IMG/VR virus record: IMGVR_UViG_3300034110_001237
Coordinates: 32,001 to 96,000 of that record
Direction: 5' to 3' (one strand)
DNA: 64,000 bases
Origin: a virus
Below are positions 3,714 to 57,050 of the stretch, in pieces; positions within the stretch are counted from its first letter, which is position 1; every line of letters starts with the position of its first letter. The notes beneath the pieces were generated by a model. That model was not told where the DNA came from. It ran no database searches and worked only from the letters and a program-made list of their open reading frames with translations. The position numbers were made by a program, and so were the translations under genes.

Positions 3714-5189
3714 ATGAATCGCTTTCATAAACTTCAAAATATAAAAGAAACGTTCGATGATAAACTATACCAGACAGATGACTTTAAAATCACAAAGGGG
3801 TTACTGTATAATTTTGGAGCTTACATTGAAGCAAATAAAGGTATTTTGTATGATTTGTTAGGTGCTTCTCTATTCAATATGGCTACTAATTCCATGCCGG
3901 TAAATAACGCTGTTACAACACCCGCTTTTAATAATCCTGTTGTCATTTCACAAATGAAAAACAAGCTTGACTCTAATTTGATTAATAGCCGTGGCATGGA
4001 TGTTTATTCTAAGATAGAAGAATTCAAAAAAAATTCACAATTAGGCAATACCATTCAAAATCATCGCTATGCTGGTCAAGTAATACACAAGTTAAATGCT
4101 GATTCAATTAAAGATTTGAAAAATGGAGCAGAAGGTTCTGTTAAAATTTTCGAGAACCCTTTCTGGAAAGGTAACGTGGTTGAGATAGAATCATCTAATT
4201 ATTACATGAATAAATTTGTATTTTCCAATTACTATCTGATTAATGACATCAAAGTTAATACTGACAACTCACTCTTGTTAACCGATAATAGTGAGCAAAA
4301 ATTATATTACAACCATCAAGATGTTAATGAATTTGCACGTTACAGTGACACAAAAAACATAGAATTGATGACTAAATATATCGTTTATCATGAAGCAGCA
4401 CATGGAGCTTTTAGACAAGCCTATACATTAGGACGTGATTCTAATGTGTTAAAAAATGAAGTTCATTCTGATATATCTTCATTGACCATGATAGGTGTTG
4501 AATCTAAAAGTTTAGCCGAATTCAATGAAGCCGTTGATATGATCATGCAAATGCGAGTTAAATCTTTGAAAGACGGTGATTATGGTCACAACGACTCTTA
4601 TGCCATCAGCGAACTGAAGAAAGTTATTAATGACAATCCTGATTTGTTAAAAATGAAAGTAGAAGACATTTCAGAGTTTTCTTATATTTTAACAGATACA
4701 TTGTTTAAAGAAAACGTTAAAAAAAATAATGCTGACTTACTTGAAAAAATGGGTATAAATCTTGATCAAAAAAGTATTTTCAATGATTTAAAAGCGTACA
4801 GAAATTTAGATCTGTATGATTCTGTTGGTGTTAAAATCACAAGTCAGTATATGTTTAAAACGTCAGAAATGATCAAAGAAGGAATGGACTCTAGAATAGA
4901 TAAATTTGCCGAAAGAATTGCAAAAACTCTTGACAATCAAATGCAATTTGATACAACAAGCACCTTAATGTTCAGAGAAAATGGTGGTAATGTGGCTAAA
5001 ACTACTCAGGCTATCCATGATAGGGTTGAAAAGAATCCAATCATCTCTAAAAGCGTTATTGATCCTATTAAACAAAAAGTTCATATAGATGGTTTAGAAT
5101 ATGACTTATCAAAGGTCAATGACATTCGATTGAATCAGATTGCAAAAGAGTCTCAAGCGTATGTCAATAAACACAACTACAAAATTTAA
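3714..5189 (+). CDS. putative zincin-type metallopeptidase-domain protein
   Basis: 491 aa; YHEAAHG (HEXXH) followed by NEVHSD (candidate third ligand). Confidence 0.6.
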   Translation: MNRFHKLQNIKETFDDKLYQTDDFKITKGLLYNFGAYIEANKGILYDLLGASLFNMATNSMPVNNAVTTPAFNNPVVISQMKNKLDSNLINSRGMDVYSKIEEFKKNSQLGNTIQNHRYAGQVIHKLNADSIKDLKNGAEGSVKIFENPFWKGNVVEIESSNYYMNKFVFSNYYLINDIKVNTDNSLLLTDNSEQKLYYNHQDVNEFARYSDTKNIELMTKYIVYHEAAHGAFRQAYTLGRDSNVLKNEVHSDISSLTMIGVESKSLAEFNEAVDMIMQMRVKSLKDGDYGHNDSYAISELKKVINDNPDLLKMKVEDISEFSYILTDTLFKENVKKNNADLLEKMGINLDQKSIFNDLKAYRNLDLYDSVGVKITSQYMFKTSEMIKEGMDSRIDKFAERIAKTLDNQMQFDTTSTLMFRENGGNVAKTTQAIHDRVEKNPIISKSVIDPIKQKVHIDGLEYDLSKVNDIRLNQIAKESQAYVNKHNYKI

Positions 5190-15180: not shown

Positions 15181-16116
15181 ATGAAAGTTATCCAGCATAA
15201 TACACATTTTAATCGCTCTCTGCCAAAAGATGGCATTTCCGATAACTTGGTTTCATTTTTAGAGATGATTAATCAACAATTTTCATTTGATCACGCCCAT
15301 CTCTATCATCTGACAAATGCAAATATCAGTGATTACAAAAGTGTTATCATTGAGGCTATTGGTAATCGTATTAAATTGCTTCGTGGTGTTGGGCCAAGAG
15401 ATAACCAAGATTCATTGGTTAAGGAAATTAATTCTGATTTTGATGAGATTATGGATGCAAATATTTTTCCAGTATCTTTGATTATTTTTGATTATGTCTA
15501 TGGTTCAACAGTAGAATCTTCAATGGTATTTTTTCATGAACATAATAACATGTTAATGATTAATACTAAATTTTCTACATTAGTTTTTGAAAATAAATAC
15601 TTTCATGCTCCAAATATTTCTTCATCTGATGGTCTTTATTATTCCCCTGCTGTAGAATCGCTTGCTTATGAAAGTTCTACCACAAAGGGAACTTTTCCTT
15701 TTGCATCATTTTTAATCCCTGTTAATATAGAAAAAAATCATTTTGAATCGCCATACAGAGAAATTCATCAGAAAAAAGCAGAATTTCAAGTAAGAGAGCT
15801 TGATGGTGGTCAAGATAAATTTCAACAAGTAACAATTCCACCTAATTTTGATATGAATAAATTTATGTTTCGATCTAATGGTCAGCCAAAGATTCTTAAT
15901 ACGAGACTTATCTATAACAATGAAGTTATTTTTAATGATTATGATATTATTGTTTGTGATCCACAAAAAATAGTTATGCAAAAGTTACTACCCTTTTTGA
16001 CTGACTTTAAATCACAATATGAGATTATTGATAGCATGCCTGTACAGGTTTCTTCCGAATATTATGAACATTTCAAAGCCAATATCTTGCCTGTTATTGA
16101 TATGGCTAAATGTTAA
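15181..16116 (+). CDS. C-terminal DMxxI-tag family protein
   Basis: ATG after GAGG; ends VIDMAKC. Confidence 0.85.
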   Translation: MKVIQHNTHFNRSLPKDGISDNLVSFLEMINQQFSFDHAHLYHLTNANISDYKSVIIEAIGNRIKLLRGVGPRDNQDSLVKEINSDFDEIMDANIFPVSLIIFDYVYGSTVESSMVFFHEHNNMLMINTKFSTLVFENKYFHAPNISSSDGLYYSPAVESLAYESSTTKGTFPFASFLIPVNIEKNHFESPYREIHQKKAEFQVRELDGGQDKFQQVTIPPNFDMNKFMFRSNGQPKILNTRLIYNNEVIFNDYDIIVCDPQKIVMQKLLPFLTDFKSQYEIIDSMPVQVSSEYYEHFKANILPVIDMAKC

Positions 16117-16135
16117 TATTTTTTCAAAAAAAGTA

Positions 16136-16164
16136 TTGCCAAAGTGATCGAAATGTCGTATAAT
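16136..16164 (+). promoter_or_regulatory. sigma70-type promoter for the ncRNA-tRNA unit
   Basis: TTGCCA-17nt-TATAAT with upstream A tract; no RBS or ORF downstream. Confidence 0.8.
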
Positions 16165-16170
16165 AGTCCC

Positions 16171-16525
16171 GTTGTTAAGCAATAAGGTAATCTTGGGAAG
16201 TTGGCTTAGAAGCAGCCATCTTATAATGAGTAGAGCGGTTGCCATAGGTGTTTGGGATTAAGTGATGGTAAGCATCGGGTTTAAATGATTTAGCGGTCAT
16301 TTAAAGGTATCGGTGACAAGTGAGCCACGGTTTGTCGAAATCGAATCCACATTAAAGTAGATTTTGCAGATCAAAACGCCTCAGCCAAAAGCTCCCAGTT
16401 CTTGCAATAATGTAAGAATTCGCCGTGGTTGTGGTCTTGGTCAAGTAAGGAGGCACCCCAGAAATGGTAAGGCTGAATTCTCTTTTGGCGTAATAGCACA
16501 CCATGATTATGATTGTTTTTGCAAC
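16171..16525 (+). ncRNA. structured RNA containing a split mimic of the 23S rRNA H43-H44 (uL11-binding / GTPase-associated centre)
   Basis: GTTGGCTTAGAAGCAGCCATC (16200-16220) and GCGTAATAGC (16488-16497) match the conserved 23S rRNA 1059-1079 and 1091-1100 sequences as recalled; 5' and 3' ends pair; nested helices; higher GC than flanks. Confidence 0.85.
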
Positions 16526-16530
16526 AAAAC

Positions 16531-16599
16531 CTGCCACTAAGGCTGACCTTGGCCCTCTAAAAGCTAAAGGGAACGGTTCGACTCCGTTGTGGTGGACCA
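16531..16599 (+). tRNA. atypical amber-suppressor-type tRNA (anticodon CUA), short D arm
   Basis: Acceptor CTGCCAC/GTGGTGG, A73, CCA; T arm AACGG-TTCGACT-CCGTT; anticodon loop CTCTAAA; D arm AGG-CTGA-CCT. Confidence 0.75.
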
Positions 16600-16609
16600 A
16601 CTTCTAAAT

Positions 16610-16644
16610 AATGCCAGCTCATAGTGATATGATGTTGGCATTTT
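16610..16644 (+). terminator. intrinsic terminator closing the ncRNA-tRNA unit
   Basis: AATGCCAGC...GTTGGCATT plus T tract. Confidence 0.65.
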
Positions 16645-16700
16645 ATTGTCTTTATTTTATTTTTATGATATACTTATCCAAATTTTTGGAGATCTGTTAA

Positions 16701-17357
16701 ATGCCTAATCCCGATAGAATTGCTCAGTTAACTGCAGTGGCTAATATGAGCCAGCTTGACAAAATTGAGCGGTTGACCACTACCATTAAAAAAGTCTACG
16801 GCATTGATGTGTCAGACGTAAAACTGGTTAAGAATCAAACCGCCCAGTACAAAGCGAAAACATCACTTGGTCCTGCTCGTATCTATGTTTATTCGCAGTG
16901 CATTGATATTAAATTCACATCGACTGTAGCATTTGATGGTCAACAACTCACTTTGAAAAAATCCACGGACGTGATTCAAACTATTTTTGATGACATCAAT
17001 AAACGAACGGTTATTTTTAATGTCGTCAAATTACGTCAACAAAATAATAAAGATGTCCATTTTTATGGTAATACCAAATTCAGTATTAAGATTGTGGTGC
17101 GATTTTCTGCGACTAATCCACAACTGTATTTTAAAGCGACACCTTATTCAACGTATTCTTTCTTTAACTACATGAATGAATGTGCCATGTCGGGTTATAA
17201 AAAGACGCTTGAAGTGTATTATTTGAAAGCTGAATTTGATTCCATAACAGGCGTTGAGCAAGCATTCTCTTTTATTAAAGATTACTTTAAAGGTCGGAAT
17301 CTCACGCTTGATGATGCGAAACGTTTAGCTGACTTGCAGGATATGGTAAAAATATGA
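16701..17357 (+). CDS. C-terminal DMxxI-tag family protein
   Basis: 218 aa, ends LQDMVKI, GGAG RBS. Confidence 0.85.
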   Translation: MPNPDRIAQLTAVANMSQLDKIERLTTTIKKVYGIDVSDVKLVKNQTAQYKAKTSLGPARIYVYSQCIDIKFTSTVAFDGQQLTLKKSTDVIQTIFDDINKRTVIFNVVKLRQQNNKDVHFYGNTKFSIKIVVRFSATNPQLYFKATPYSTYSFFNYMNECAMSGYKKTLEVYYLKAEFDSITGVEQAFSFIKDYFKGRNLTLDDAKRLADLQDMVKI

Positions 17358-19415: not shown

Positions 19416-19940
19416 ATGACACTATCTATCCGCAAAGAATACGAAACATTAGGGGTTGATACCTATTACAGCGACCATGCTGAAACGTATCACAATCCTC
19501 ATGCTGCCTTTGCTTTGACCTGTCTTGACCAGCTTTGGAAACCAAGCTTTAAAAACATTCTGGATTTTGCTTGTGGGGACGGTCTTGTTTCTAAACATCT
19601 CTCCAAAACAAAACAGGTTAATTCGGTTGTAGGTTGTGATAAATTTCTATTTTCCCGTTATCAGAGAGAAACCCATAATCAATGCTTTGACTATTCGTTT
19701 GAAGACGTTGCTAATGGTGAGTTTGAAATGCCTAAAGTTGATGTGATTGTATTAAGTTATGCCATTGACCTTGTTGAAGCGTCGTATTTGAGTACCATGC
19801 TTTATGGCTTGTCTACGATTGCTGATAATTTGATTGTTATTCGTCCGAATAATCATGTTGTTGAACATTTTGCTTGGCAGTTGGAACAATCGGTAAAAGT
19901 AGAAAAATCTCGTGGAATGTTGTACACAAAAACTATTTAA
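19416..19940 (+). CDS. class I SAM-dependent methyltransferase
   Basis: ILDFACGDG motif I, VVGCD motif II. Confidence 0.8.
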   Translation: MTLSIRKEYETLGVDTYYSDHAETYHNPHAAFALTCLDQLWKPSFKNILDFACGDGLVSKHLSKTKQVNSVVGCDKFLFSRYQRETHNQCFDYSFEDVANGEFEMPKVDVIVLSYAIDLVEASYLSTMLYGLSTIADNLIVIRPNNHVVEHFAWQLEQSVKVEKSRGMLYTKTI

Positions 19941-31763: not shown

Positions 31764-32276
31764 ATGGCTATTCATTTCGCAGCAGACATCAATGCAGAAC
31801 AAGGCACTGACCTTGGGTGGAAATTTGAAAATGGTGTTTTGTATGAGTCCGTCAGCTACATGCTAAAAGAGATCTTTCCTGAATTTCTTTCCATGCTTAA
31901 AGTGGACGATGAACATCGTTATATTCCAGAAGTTCATATTCAAAAGAAAATCGAATTCCATGACAAGATTGATGCCGAATTCTTCTTGTTCTACTATCCT
32001 GAAAAAGAAACATCTGGTCAAGATCCTTATGTGGACGAAAATGGTGCCCAATGCCATGCTTCCAGTAAAGATGTTGATCTTGAAGTTCCAATGTATGAAC
32101 TTCGTGAAGCGGTTCGAGCAGAATTTCCACAAGTCGTAGATGTAGAAAAGTTTGTCGATAATGTTTTGAAACTGCACAGTGATGATACTTACTATATGAA
32201 CCATTATTATGGCGATAGTGTCACTTATGCTTACATTAAAATCAAAAAAGATGCTGACCTTAGTCGCTATCTCTAA
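31764..32276 (+). CDS. hypothetical acidic protein
   Basis: ATG after AAGGA. Confidence 0.8.
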   Translation: MAIHFAADINAEQGTDLGWKFENGVLYESVSYMLKEIFPEFLSMLKVDDEHRYIPEVHIQKKIEFHDKIDAEFFLFYYPEKETSGQDPYVDENGAQCHASSKDVDLEVPMYELREAVRAEFPQVVDVEKFVDNVLKLHSDDTYYMNHYYGDSVTYAYIKIKKDADLSRYL

Positions 32277-42222: not shown

Positions 42223-43308
42223 ATGTCTACGTTTAAAGCAACCGTTCTTTCAGTCATTGTTGAGCCACACCCTAACGCTGATGCGATTGAACTGGCTCGC
42301 GTTGGTGATTTCTTTTCGATTATCCAAAAAGGATATTTGAAAACTGGCGATTTGGCTGTCTATATCCCAGAAGGTGCCCTTGTCCCTGAATTCATTCAGG
42401 AAGAAGTGGGGTGCCTCGGTAAATTGGCAGGTTCCAAGAAAAATCGTTTGAAACCGTCTATGCTTCGTGGCGTGCTTAGCCAAGGTCTTTGCTTTAAGGC
42501 CCGTGAAGGTTGGGAAATTGGTGATGATAAAGCCGAAGAATTGGGTATCGTGAAATATGAGGCTCCTATTCCAGCTTCTATGAATGGTGAAATTTCTAAC
42601 GTAGGCATTGAAAACACTTTCCACTTTGACATTGAAAACGTCAAACGCTACCCTGATGTGTTGGTTGAGGGTGAAGAAGTGTCGATGACTGAAAAACTGC
42701 ACGGTACTTTTACTATTGCAGGTAGTGTGTATGGTAAAGCTCCAATTCCACACACTGTTAATGGTCGTTCTTTTGTGAGTAGCAAAGGATTCTTTAACAA
42801 AGGTTTGGTGCTTCGTGATAACGAACAAAATGCTCATAACATTTACATTCGTGTAGCGAAGAAGTTTAATCTTTATGACATTACGGCTATCCTTTCAGAC
42901 CGTTACAAAACTAACGCTTACATTTCGGGTGAAACGTTTGGTGCTGTTCAAGATTTGACTTACGGTCTTGAAGCGGGTGTGTTCGATTTCCGTGTGTTCA
43001 ATGTGTTCCTTGGTAATCGTAGCGAAGCAAGTGGTGTGTTCCCAGTGAACGATGATGTATTAGAAGAAATTCTTGCTGAGTTCGACTTGAAGCGTGTTCC
43101 AGTGCTTTACAAAGGGCCATACAGTAAAGAAGTGATGTTGAAATATACGGATGGATTTGAAACCTATTCAGGCAAAGAAACACACATCCGTGAAGGTTTG
43201 GTTATTGAACCACTTGTTCAGCGTCGTGACCCAACCATTGGGCGTGTTGTCTTGAAAAGTGTTTCAACTGCTTACTTGTCGCGTAAAGGTGGCACTGAGC
43301 TTAACTAA
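42223..43308 (+). CDS. ATP-dependent RNA ligase, DRB0094-like family
   Basis: N-terminal HPNADAIE / LRGVLSQG module; motif I TEKLHGT, GETFG, FRVF, REGLVI, LKSVS. Confidence 0.9.
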   Translation: MSTFKATVLSVIVEPHPNADAIELARVGDFFSIIQKGYLKTGDLAVYIPEGALVPEFIQEEVGCLGKLAGSKKNRLKPSMLRGVLSQGLCFKAREGWEIGDDKAEELGIVKYEAPIPASMNGEISNVGIENTFHFDIENVKRYPDVLVEGEEVSMTEKLHGTFTIAGSVYGKAPIPHTVNGRSFVSSKGFFNKGLVLRDNEQNAHNIYIRVAKKFNLYDITAILSDRYKTNAYISGETFGAVQDLTYGLEAGVFDFRVFNVFLGNRSEASGVFPVNDDVLEEILAEFDLKRVPVLYKGPYSKEVMLKYTDGFETYSGKETHIREGLVIEPLVQRRDPTIGRVVLKSVSTAYLSRKGGTELN

Positions 43309-55725: not shown

Positions 55726-55895
55726 AAATTAACCCTCAAATAATCGATTATTTTACTTTATGGATGATAAAAAGTCAATGTTTTATGTTATTTTCATTTT
55801 ATTTCTTTGTTTTTAACTTTTTCATGATTAAAACGTTGCTTTATAGGCTCTATTTTGGTACAATATCGGAAATGAAAACAACGGAGATACACCAC

Positions 55896-57050
55896 ATGTC
55901 AATTTTTCCAACTATTCGCCATATTGACGACATCTTGCCAGCTTTGGTTGGTAAAGATTACATCGGTATCAACAAGCAATCTAACGGTTCGACTGTTATT
56001 TGCTATAACATCAGCAATGCTGAAGGTTTTGCTACGTCTTTTGAAAAAGAGTGTCGTGGTATTACTTTCAACCGCGATGGTAAAATTGTCTCCCGTCCTT
56101 TGCATAAGTTCTTTAACTTGGCAGAGCGTGAAGAAGTCTTGCCACAAAACTTGAATTGGGATGATGTTGTTGCTGTCTTCGATAAAATGGATGGTTCTAT
56201 GATTACGGGTGGTGTATTCCACGGTGAAGTCTTCGTAAAATCTAAAAAATCCTTTGAATCGGATGTGGCTGTCTCTGCTTTGGCTTATGTGAAAGCAAAC
56301 CAGAAATATTACGATTTCATCAAGCATTGTGCTAATGTAGATTTGACACCAGTTTTTGAATATACGTCGCCAAATAACCGGATCGTATTGCGTTACGATG
56401 AAGAAAAAATGACTGTGTTGCATGTTCGTCATAACATCACTGGTTTATACCATACTCCAGATGAAGTGGCAGCATTGGCGAAGTCTTTTGACATTCCAGT
56501 GAACGCACCATTGTTTGGTAAAGGCTTTGATTTGAAAGCATTGTTGGAATCTTTGAATACTGTTGAAGGAATCGAAGGTTATGTCATTCAGTTTAAAAAC
56601 GGCGATATGGTGAAAGTCAAAACTCGCTGGTATGTAAACTTGCACCATGCTGTTACTTTCGTGCGTATCCGTGATATTGCTCGTTTGGTATTGTCGGAAA
56701 AAATTGACGACTACATTGCATTTGTTGCTTTGAATGCACCAGAAGCCGATTTGACTCAAATCCATCATATCAACGACACTATTAAAGGTGAAATTGAAGG
56801 AATCAAGAAAGAAGTTGATACAATTTTGGCTCAGCATCAAGGTGCAGATTTCAAAACGTTGGCAACTACTTACTTGGGGCATCCATACTTCTCTTTCATC
56901 ATGACCACTGCTCGTGGTAAAGAAGTGGATTATTTGGACTACTACGAACGTAACCGTTTGAAAGAAGTTTGGTCTTTGGAGCAAGTGGATTTGGGTGACT
57001 TCACTGGCACCGACGAATCAGACGAAGAAGTTCAAGTAGACGAAGAGTGA
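55896..57050 (+). CDS. T4 Rnl1 (RnlA)-like RNA ligase
   Basis: ECRGI, RPLHKFFN, motif I KMDGS, FEYTSPNNRIV, EGYV, KVKT.WY; ATG after GGAG. Confidence 0.92.
   Translation: MSIFPTIRHIDDILPALVGKDYIGINKQSNGSTVICYNISNAEGFATSFEKECRGITFNRDGKIVSRPLHKFFNLAEREEVLPQNLNWDDVVAVFDKMDGSMITGGVFHGEVFVKSKKSFESDVAVSALAYVKANQKYYDFIKHCANVDLTPVFEYTSPNNRIVLRYDEEKMTVLHVRHNITGLYHTPDEVAALAKSFDIPVNAPLFGKGFDLKALLESLNTVEGIEGYVIQFKNGDMVKVKTRWYVNLHHAVTFVRIRDIARLVLSEKIDDYIAFVALNAPEADLTQIHHINDTIKGEIEGIKKEVDTILAQHQGADFKTLATTYLGHPYFSFIMTTARGKEVDYLDYYERNRLKEVWSLEQVDLGDFTGTDESDEEVQVDEE

Follow-up and report, generated by a model that had tools for sequence, protein, structure and literature searches.

A stretch of viral DNA of 64,000 nt (positions 32,001 to 96,000 of the IMG/VR record IMGVR_UViG_3300034110_001237; hereafter the window) was analysed, and a unit of ~355 nt was found at positions 16171-16525 in which both ends combine to re-form the 58-nt domain of 23S rRNA that binds uL11 and thiostrepton (E. 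coli positions 1051-1108). The parts re-formed were the top of helix H42, H43, the 1082:1086 pair and H44. The RNA of this unit, termed the mimic below, belongs almost certainly to a phage-restricted family of structured RNAs in which the fold of the GTPase-associated centre (GAC) has been selected. It probably imitates the uL11/GTPase-associated site away from the ribosome. Ribosomal RNA is usually thought to be active only within the ribosome; here, the mimic has been kept by compensatory evolution across many phage lineages.

The copied rRNA domain and its insert

The sequences GTTGGCTTAGAAGCAGCCATC (16200-16220) and GCGTAATAGC (16488-16497) had been named as 23S rRNA matches in a first-pass annotation, which a model had made from the letters of the window. 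Both matches were recovered by BLAST and by alignment to E. coli 23S rRNA. In BLAST against all complete E. coli genomes, positions 16194-16229 (36 nt) matched the 23S gene in each. When a single annotated 23S sequence of E. coli was compared, 26 of 27 positions were identical in the H43 block and 10 of 10 in the GCGTAATAGC block, the E. coli positions 1053-1079 and 1091-1100 being assigned after the +4 offset of that strain had been corrected. Judged from the sequence, an identity of 21 nt to 23S rRNA within 64 kb cannot be a product of chance.

The identity was limited to these 36 nt plus 10 nt. Rfam 15 returned only tRNAs when the window was searched at gathering thresholds, when positions 15950-16750 were searched at E <= 10 and when ten further loci were searched. 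The earlier statement that no other rRNA flanks the unit was accordingly upheld, as neither search threshold gave a match to large-subunit (LSU) rRNA, and a 23S gene or a fragment of an rRNA pseudogene was rejected as the identity of the unit. LSU rRNA, GOLLD, ROOL and all other families apart from tRNA were likewise without a match in the window and the ten loci, which agreed with the annotation having recognised no named family. No account of the family came up when the literature was searched for a mimic of the GAC, of uL11 or of rRNA in phages.

The pairing of the two ends was present as had been claimed, with all three segments of the helix P1 in place: GTTG (16171-16174) with CAAC (16522-16525), AAGCAAT (16177-16183) with ATTGTTT (16512-16518), and TAATC-T-TGG with CCA-T-GATTA. 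The compensatory changes from E. coli listed in the annotation were found as A-U at 1058:1080 and at 1082:1086, U-A at 1053:1106 and G-C at 1054:1105, and the pairs 1058:1080 and 1082:1086 and those of P1 covaried throughout the family. The U-A at 1090:1101 was also present, but this pair was conserved in the family and showed no covariation, and its register came from the alignment only. In this register, G1089-U1090 (16230-16231) pair with C1102-A1101 (16499-16498).

An insert of ~250 nt, closed by a 4-bp stem (Pi), sits between U1090 and G1091. Its 3' module contains a helix B (GGC/GCU, 16452-16454 with 16472-16474), an internal loop ACC/UAAG and a hairpin CCA-GAAA-UGG (16458-16467). Two compensatory changes were seen in the hairpin 16280-16305 among the window and the related contigs L056 and L058, and helix B carried a double change from G-C to A-U in L058. 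Unconstrained folding of the RNA gave -102 kcal/mol, compared with -81 kcal/mol with the core imposed, and the GAC core was not recovered; this was expected because the fold is held by tertiary contacts. The module may dock on the core for stability or may bind a second partner. Its local alignment with E. coli 23S rRNA scored no better than shuffled sequences, and the tetraloop varied between GNRA and UAAN. A copy of another part of rRNA (the sarcin-ricin loop, the H42 kink-turn/uL10 site or H59) was therefore rejected as the origin of the module. A pairing of the H43 loop with UUAAG of the insert was also rejected, since no covariation was seen by eye.

A phage family with a covarying GAC fold

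Members of the family were searched for with BLAST and then with two patterns from the invariant 3' region, which were scanned over viral contigs; one of the two patterns was also scanned over metagenome contigs and over one genome each for 185,579 prokaryote species. After duplicates and coding false matches were removed, at least 32 distinct members were obtained from phages and metagenomes. The set of cellular genomes yielded only one member, which was on a contig of a metagenome-assembled genome. The family has a variable spacer between the two motifs, an arrangement for which the first-pass annotation had suggested searching, and covariation was found across 27 aligned members.

Covariation was tested on the 27-sequence alignment over 29 core pairs, with 500 shuffles and slid structures as controls. 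The proportion of paired cells was 91.6%, compared with 77.2% in the shuffles, and two-sided (compensatory) change occurred in 16 of the 29 pairs. The covariation score was 0.422, whereas the shuffles gave 0.165 (0/500 reached the observed score) and the slid controls gave 0.09-0.15. All four pairs of Pi covaried, with 100% of cells paired; six of the seven innermost pairs of P1 and four of the seven pairs of H43 (1057:1081, 1058:1080, 1062:1076 and 1064:1074) also covaried. The lone tertiary pair 1082:1086 was U-A in 17 members, A-U in 5 (the window among them) and C-G in 2, and the H44 pair C1092:G1099 was replaced by U-A in 2 members. Pairs in both H43 and H44 hence changed in a compensatory manner, as the mimic model of the annotation had predicted.

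A covariance model (R1) was built from nine members, with this phage and its kin left out. R1 matched the window in two halves because of the long insert, with 62.7 bits for the 3' half (E 1.7e-17) and 39.9 bits for the 5' half (E 1.8e-11). The close relatives L056 and L058 were matched over the full length at about 90 bits, and Serratia phage BF was matched at 50 bits. Moreover, R1 recovered the genuine GAC of E. coli 23S rRNA at 34 bits. The earlier view that selection has acted on the fold, and that the unit is not a decaying fragment, was supported by the family covariation, by the ability of R1 to find both the RNA and the real 23S site, by the lack of flanking rRNA and by the lack of an Rfam family.

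The members shared one plan: P1, H43 (loop UUAGAAGC), the junction, Pi, the insert, the 3' module, the 3' strand of Pi, UUUG, H44, ACACC and the 3' strand of P1. The junction read UUUAAAGAGU or AUAAUGAGU across the members, and H44 read GCGUAAUAGC. The insert ranged from 30 to >400 nt. The consensus of the module was YUGG-NNAAGUA-NNRR-GGCA-CC-CCR-tetraloop-YGG-UAAG-GCU-GAA; within it, GCACCCC and GGUAAGGCUGAA showed no variation in the 27 members (the subfamily A module is GCACCCC-tetraloop-GGUAAGGCUGAA), and the hairpin loop varied among GAAA, GAGA, UAAC, UAAA and UAAU.

The columns for U1060, U1066, A1067, G1071, A1077, U1083, A1085, A1088, G1091, G1093, U1094, A1098 and C1100 were invariant, and A1095 was changed in only 1 of the 27 members. 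In the structures reported by Conn and Wimberly in 1999, the invariant columns are the bases that make up the tertiary core and the two exposed loops of the GAC; A1067 and A1095 line the cleft opposite the L11 N-terminal domain. The U1060-A1088 pair is contacted by residues Gly130-Thr131 of L11 (PMC2175356). The sequence of P1 was not conserved past its first pairs; the copy therefore leaves out the uL10 site of H42.

Both rRNA-like blocks were found by BLAST in Aeromonas phage 4_4572 and in Pseudomonas phages Astolliot and UNO-G1W1, where they lie in unannotated DNA with a tRNA directly downstream; a shorter query added Pseudomonas phage pf16. A 21-nt match was present in the jumbo phages Serratia BF, six Erwinia pEa_SNUABM phages, Erwinia Kaldavass and Xanthomonas XbC2. 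The Erwinia and Xanthomonas phages are known from this match alone, and the sequence of Serratia BF was inspected. The latter (L055 981-1228) was a divergent form with a CCGUAAUUGGUAAACG hairpin module at the 5' side of the insert and not at the 3' side. Cultured carriers of the family are pf16, Astolliot, UNO-G1W1, 4_4572 and BF, and the question of its function is therefore directly testable at the bench.

Second, divergent copies were scored by R1 in two contigs, L034 (58 bits) and L014 (54 bits). These paralogues (L034 5615-5790, - strand; L014 2703-2895) kept P1, H43, Pi and H44, and the GGUAAGGCUGAA module was absent from them; in L034, the P1 sequence TGCAGG was common to both copies. 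A lone H43-like hairpin, GGTGGGCTTAGGAGCAGCCATCC, occurred at L014 3898-3922 with no H44 partner nearby and may be a fragment or a chance occurrence. An extra large insertion between H43 and the UUUAAAGAG junction was seen in L017 (2856-3271) and L030 (311-826), and marks a second permissive site. In Astolliot (L002 1060-1390), a second H43-like block, CGGGCTTAGAAGTAGCCAT, lies upstream of the member, and R1 gave it no full-member score.

Transcription unit and tRNA context

The features of the unit are collected in Table 1. The promoter named in the first-pass annotation was recovered as a near-consensus sequence, and its hexamers and spacing were kept in three relatives (L056, L058 and L057) while the sequence of the spacer diverged. 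The predicted transcription start, ~16171, is the first base of P1. The GC content was 0.43-0.46 over 16200-16600, compared with about 0.30 in the flanks, which bore out the description of the unit as GC-richer. The terminator hairpin (-16.8 kcal/mol, z -3.8) was conserved in the relatives.

Table 1. Features of the mimic and its transcription unit in the window (bases numbered as in E. coli 23S rRNA where four-digit positions are given)
Feature	Position	Strand	Description
Promoter	16136..16164	+	sigma-70 type, TTGCCA-17-TATAAT; 11/12 positions match the consensus
P1, 5' strand	16171..16196	+	pairs with 16501-16525; innermost pairs equivalent to the top of H42 (E. coli 1053-1055)
H43 copy	16198..16222	+	E. 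coli 1057-1081; A1067 at 16208, U1060 at 16201
Junction	16223..16231	+	A-UAA-U-GAGU; lone pair 1082:1086 is 16223:16227; A1088 is 16229
Pi, 5' strand	16232..16235	+	AGAG; 4-bp stem closing the insert; pairs with CUCU 16480-16483
Insert, variable part	16236..16435	+	several hairpins, e.g. 16280-16305
Insert, 3' module	16436..16479	+	CUUGG-UCAAGUAAGGA; invariant in the family; ends GAAUU
Pi, 3' strand, and linker	16480..16487	+	CUCU and conserved UUUG linker
H44 copy	16488..16499	+	E. coli 1091-1102; GUAAUA loop; A1095 at 16492
P1, 3' strand	16501..16525	+	assigned from the pairing reading and family covariation
tRNA-shaped gene	16531..16599	+	69 nt; CUA anticodon loop CUCUAAA
Intrinsic terminator	16610..16650	+	14-bp hairpin (16610-16642), then a U-rich tail

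Two further statements of the annotation held in part. The unit had been described as free of open reading frames (ORFs); short ORFs of 41-82 aa do overlap it, but they were unconserved and without codon periodicity, and indels of 1 nt occurred, so the unit is noncoding. Substitutions among the window, L056 and L058 were spread over the three codon phases as 17/21/25, with no 3-base periodicity, and no ORF was conserved among these three sequences; a protein-coding reading was accordingly rejected. The unit had also been called free-standing, which was not fully the case: the tRNA-shaped gene starts 5 nt later, and the terminator follows only after that gene. The mimic locus is flanked by two genes without assignable annotation. 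No second copy of the mimic was found in the record, where a pattern match with 1 mismatch at genome position 13719 was an unrelated sequence.

In the tRNA-shaped gene, the acceptor stem (7 bp) includes G3.U70 and the D stem (3 bp) bears a 4-nt loop lacking GG; the T arm is canonical, and both A73 and an encoded CCA are present. The combination of G3.U70 and A73 is the identity set of AlaRS. The acceptor, anticodon and T arms fold. The gene was not called by ARAGORN or by the Rfam tRNA model. Changes that support its shape were seen among four related contigs: L057 and L058 have G-C in place of the acceptor pair A6-U67, and L056 has A-U in place of a G.U of the anticodon stem. The gene probably directs cleavage by RNase P and thereby releases the mimic at its 3' end. 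Recoding of TAG, which might explain a CUA anticodon, was unsupported, as ORF lengths barely rose when TAG was read as sense and only four candidate read-through ORFs were found; the sole PHROG match among these candidates begins 3' of the TAGs.

The order promoter, mimic, tRNA-shaped gene and terminator was identical in L056 and L058. In L057 (~4011-4079; compared with L058 177-605), the promoter, the tRNA-shaped gene and the terminator were present, and the ~350-nt mimic was cleanly absent, leaving GTTG|CAA. The mimic is hence a discrete cassette that a tRNA leader can acquire or lose, and its presence is not required for the tRNA unit to work. This absence also argues against an obligatory role in cis.

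Across the family, tRNA genes were present within 3 kb at 26 of 32 loci, and all 126 of these tRNAs were on the strand of the mimic. At 15 loci, the gap between a tRNA and the end of P1 was 2-30 nt, as it is between neighbouring tRNAs of an array; six loci had no tRNA within 3 kb. The window itself had no canonical tRNA within 3 kb, only the tRNA-shaped CUA gene 5 nt 3' of P1. No protein family recurred beside the mimic among the loci, and this lack of a conserved protein neighbour fits a ligand supplied by the host.

Candidate functions and known counterparts

The explanation favoured here is that the mimic is a stable decoy, processed in the manner of a tRNA, that captures uL11. This explanation is tentative, and on the sequence evidence its probability was placed somewhat below an even chance. 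The mimic and the tRNA-shaped gene would be transcribed by the host RNA polymerase from the near-consensus promoter, and a cut by RNase P at the tRNA-shaped gene, or at real tRNAs in other phages, would release the mimic. The long P1 may shield both ends, which would let the RNA accumulate to tRNA-like levels; the tRNA-array spacing and strand point to such a release by tRNA-processing enzymes, with P1 protecting the ends. The GAC surface, now off the ribosome, would capture free or exchanging uL11, and the occupancy of uL11 on ribosomes would fall. uL11 is favoured as the ligand, indirectly, because exactly the minimal uL11 domain was copied and because U1060-A1088 is invariant.

When uL11 is scarce, ribosomes fail to activate RelA, and their RF1-dependent termination at UAG is poor. 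The strain label L11C presumably denotes an overexpressed C-terminal domain of L11. In PMC4333366, an E. coli strain with this label in its name was used to obtain UAG read-through. In the proposed mechanism, uL11-poor ribosomes would leave RelA inactive, and infection, or a flood of uncharged phage tRNA, would call forth a weaker stringent response; a phage that brings large amounts of tRNA into the cell might plausibly profit from this. Weak RF1 termination at UAG would, in addition, aid the co-transcribed CUA tRNA of this phage. A more specific version, in which free copies of a ribosomal functional centre, carried as mobile cassettes in tRNA arrays, strip uL11 from ribosomes and so reprogram the control of host translation, and are here paired with a minimal CUA tRNA such that lowered RF1 termination and amber suppression are delivered together, is quite unlikely.

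Several points weigh against capture of uL11. The insert exits the fold 2-3 nt from A1088, within the packing interface of H43 and H44, and could hinder uL11 instead of helping it. Titration of an abundant ribosomal protein requires the RNA to reach tRNA-like levels. Two divergent paralogues occur in some phages (L034 and L014), which a simple sponge model does not predict, and the near-invariance of A1067 and A1095 is equally consistent with recognition by a factor or a toxin. Furthermore, no in-frame UAG genes were seen in this phage, which leaves the RF1 link without a clear beneficiary, and most members are not adjacent to a suppressor tRNA.

The invariance or near-invariance of the exposed loop bases A1067 and A1095 also bears on a decoy for toxins or defence systems, in which surplus GAC would draw off enzymes directed at this rRNA site (for instance, an ADP-ribosyltransferase or RNase deployed in bacterial conflict or abortive infection), and ribosomes would be spared. 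We know of no anti-phage system that targets the GAC. A decoy of this kind would resemble phage tRNA arrays, which are thought to offset tRNA-cleaving defences, and the location of the RNA in such arrays, its nature as a swappable cassette and the investment in RNA repair that two RNA ligases suggest are in its favour. A bacterial toxin aimed at exactly this site exists: according to PMC8661411, Tre23 ADP-ribosylates bases 1095-1098 of H44, but the modification was mapped on labelled 23S rRNA. A catalytic toxin would, moreover, be hard to titrate amid tens of thousands of ribosomes, and this decoy is considered unlikely. Conservation of the factor-facing loops as in rRNA, together with co-transcription with the CUA tRNA-shaped gene here and in two relatives, would suit a trap for a translation GTPase, RelA or a release factor, bound by the RNA alone or with uL11, that alters elongation, stringent signalling or termination. 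EF-G is reported to bind oligonucleotides of the thiostrepton domain (Munishkin and Wool, 1997). On the ribosome, however, the factors depend in addition on the sarcin-ricin loop and on the L7/L12 stalk, neither of which was copied, the hairpin loop of the insert varies and the module has no significant likeness to any other 23S region; the probability given to a factor trap is low.

A role in cis within tRNA operons, as a stable leader or spacer for tRNA processing or stability or, in the manner of ribosomal-protein leaders, as a coupling of tRNA output to free uL11, would account for the constant tRNA strand and the tRNA-like spacing of the mimic, and for its position here in the leader of the tRNA-shaped gene. 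It is very unlikely: L057 keeps the promoter, the tRNA-shaped gene and the terminator without the mimic, six loci lack a tRNA within 3 kb, no alternative terminator or antiterminator lies in the 5-nt gap between the mimic and the tRNA-shaped gene, and a spacer has no need of an exact GAC tertiary core. A captured 23S fragment drifting without function is scarcely credible, even with the high identity of H43 to 23S rRNA, and is already contradicted by compensatory change over at least 27 members. The family-specific module is invariant, the unit has its own conserved promoter, and there are no rRNA flanks and no Rfam LSU match. The junction also reads AAAGAGU or AUAAUGAGU where that of E. coli 23S rRNA, the sole cellular 23S compared, reads AAAGAAAG.

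If capture of uL11 or one of the related roles is true, the mimic would be a new means of phage interference, aimed at translation factors, at the stringent response or at rRNA-directed toxins. For structural biology, it would offer a natural variant of the GAC with a built-in extra domain. The mimic and the bacterial 23S GAC share the helices, the loops (UUAGAAGC with A1067 and GUAAUA with A1095), the 1082:1086 pair and U1060, G1071, A1077, A1085 and A1088. The mimic differs in being a separate phage gene with its own P1, whereas the 23S GAC lies within a 2.9-kb rRNA, and in having a domain of 30 to >400 nt between 1090 and 1091; it contains neither the remainder of H42 (the uL10 site) nor the sarcin-ricin loop.

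In the leaders of ribosomal-protein genes (the L10 leader, RF00557, and the L1-binding leader of the L11 operon), an rRNA protein site is likewise copied off the ribosome. These leaders are cellular and act in cis, upstream of the gene for the bound protein, whereas the mimic, which is found in phage tRNA arrays with no gene for a ribosomal protein close by, reproduces its site with far greater precision and had no match among the Rfam leaders. No Ribosomal_L11 domain was found in the 161.7-kb record, which is about 50% complete, so that a uL11 gene elsewhere in the phage is possible; a tRNA-shaped gene and a terminator follow the mimic instead, and an autoregulatory leader was rejected. The RNAs rnaC and rnaD of T4 (species 1 and 2) are also small stable RNAs among phage tRNA genes and on the tRNA strand, but they were rejected as members, as they had no relation in sequence or structure and R1 found nothing in the whole T4 genome. 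GOLLD (RF01998) and ROOL (RF03087) are ornate non-coding phage RNAs that are often beside tRNAs; they contain no copy of an rRNA domain, and the 11 mimic loci searched gave no Rfam match to them. Pseudo-ToxI of phage phiTE (PMC3475682) is a phage RNA that imitates another RNA to bind a protein partner; it imitates an antitoxin repeat and its function was demonstrated, whereas the mimic copies ribosomal RNA and is known here from sequence. None of the compared systems is a separately transcribed viral copy of a functional centre of the ribosome.

The record itself has 161,697 bp and 33.8% GC, with a CheckV completeness of about 50%, and is labelled as a provirus in IMG/VR. Among catalogued phages, no megablast or tblastn match to this phage and no close relative were found, and neither T4 gp23 nor a T4-type capsid domain was found in the 161.7-kb record. 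Only 12 ORFs of at least 350 aa were present in 162 kb, and the longest stop-free frame had 634 codons. Two RNA ligase genes were identified at 42223-43308 and 55764-57050 (PF09414 with a PHA02142 OB domain, and a T4 Rnl1-like PF09511, respectively), which suggests that the phage repairs damaged RNA. A small methyltransferase gene (19416-19940), 3 kb downstream of the mimic, matched phrog_19153 (tRNA methyltransferase).

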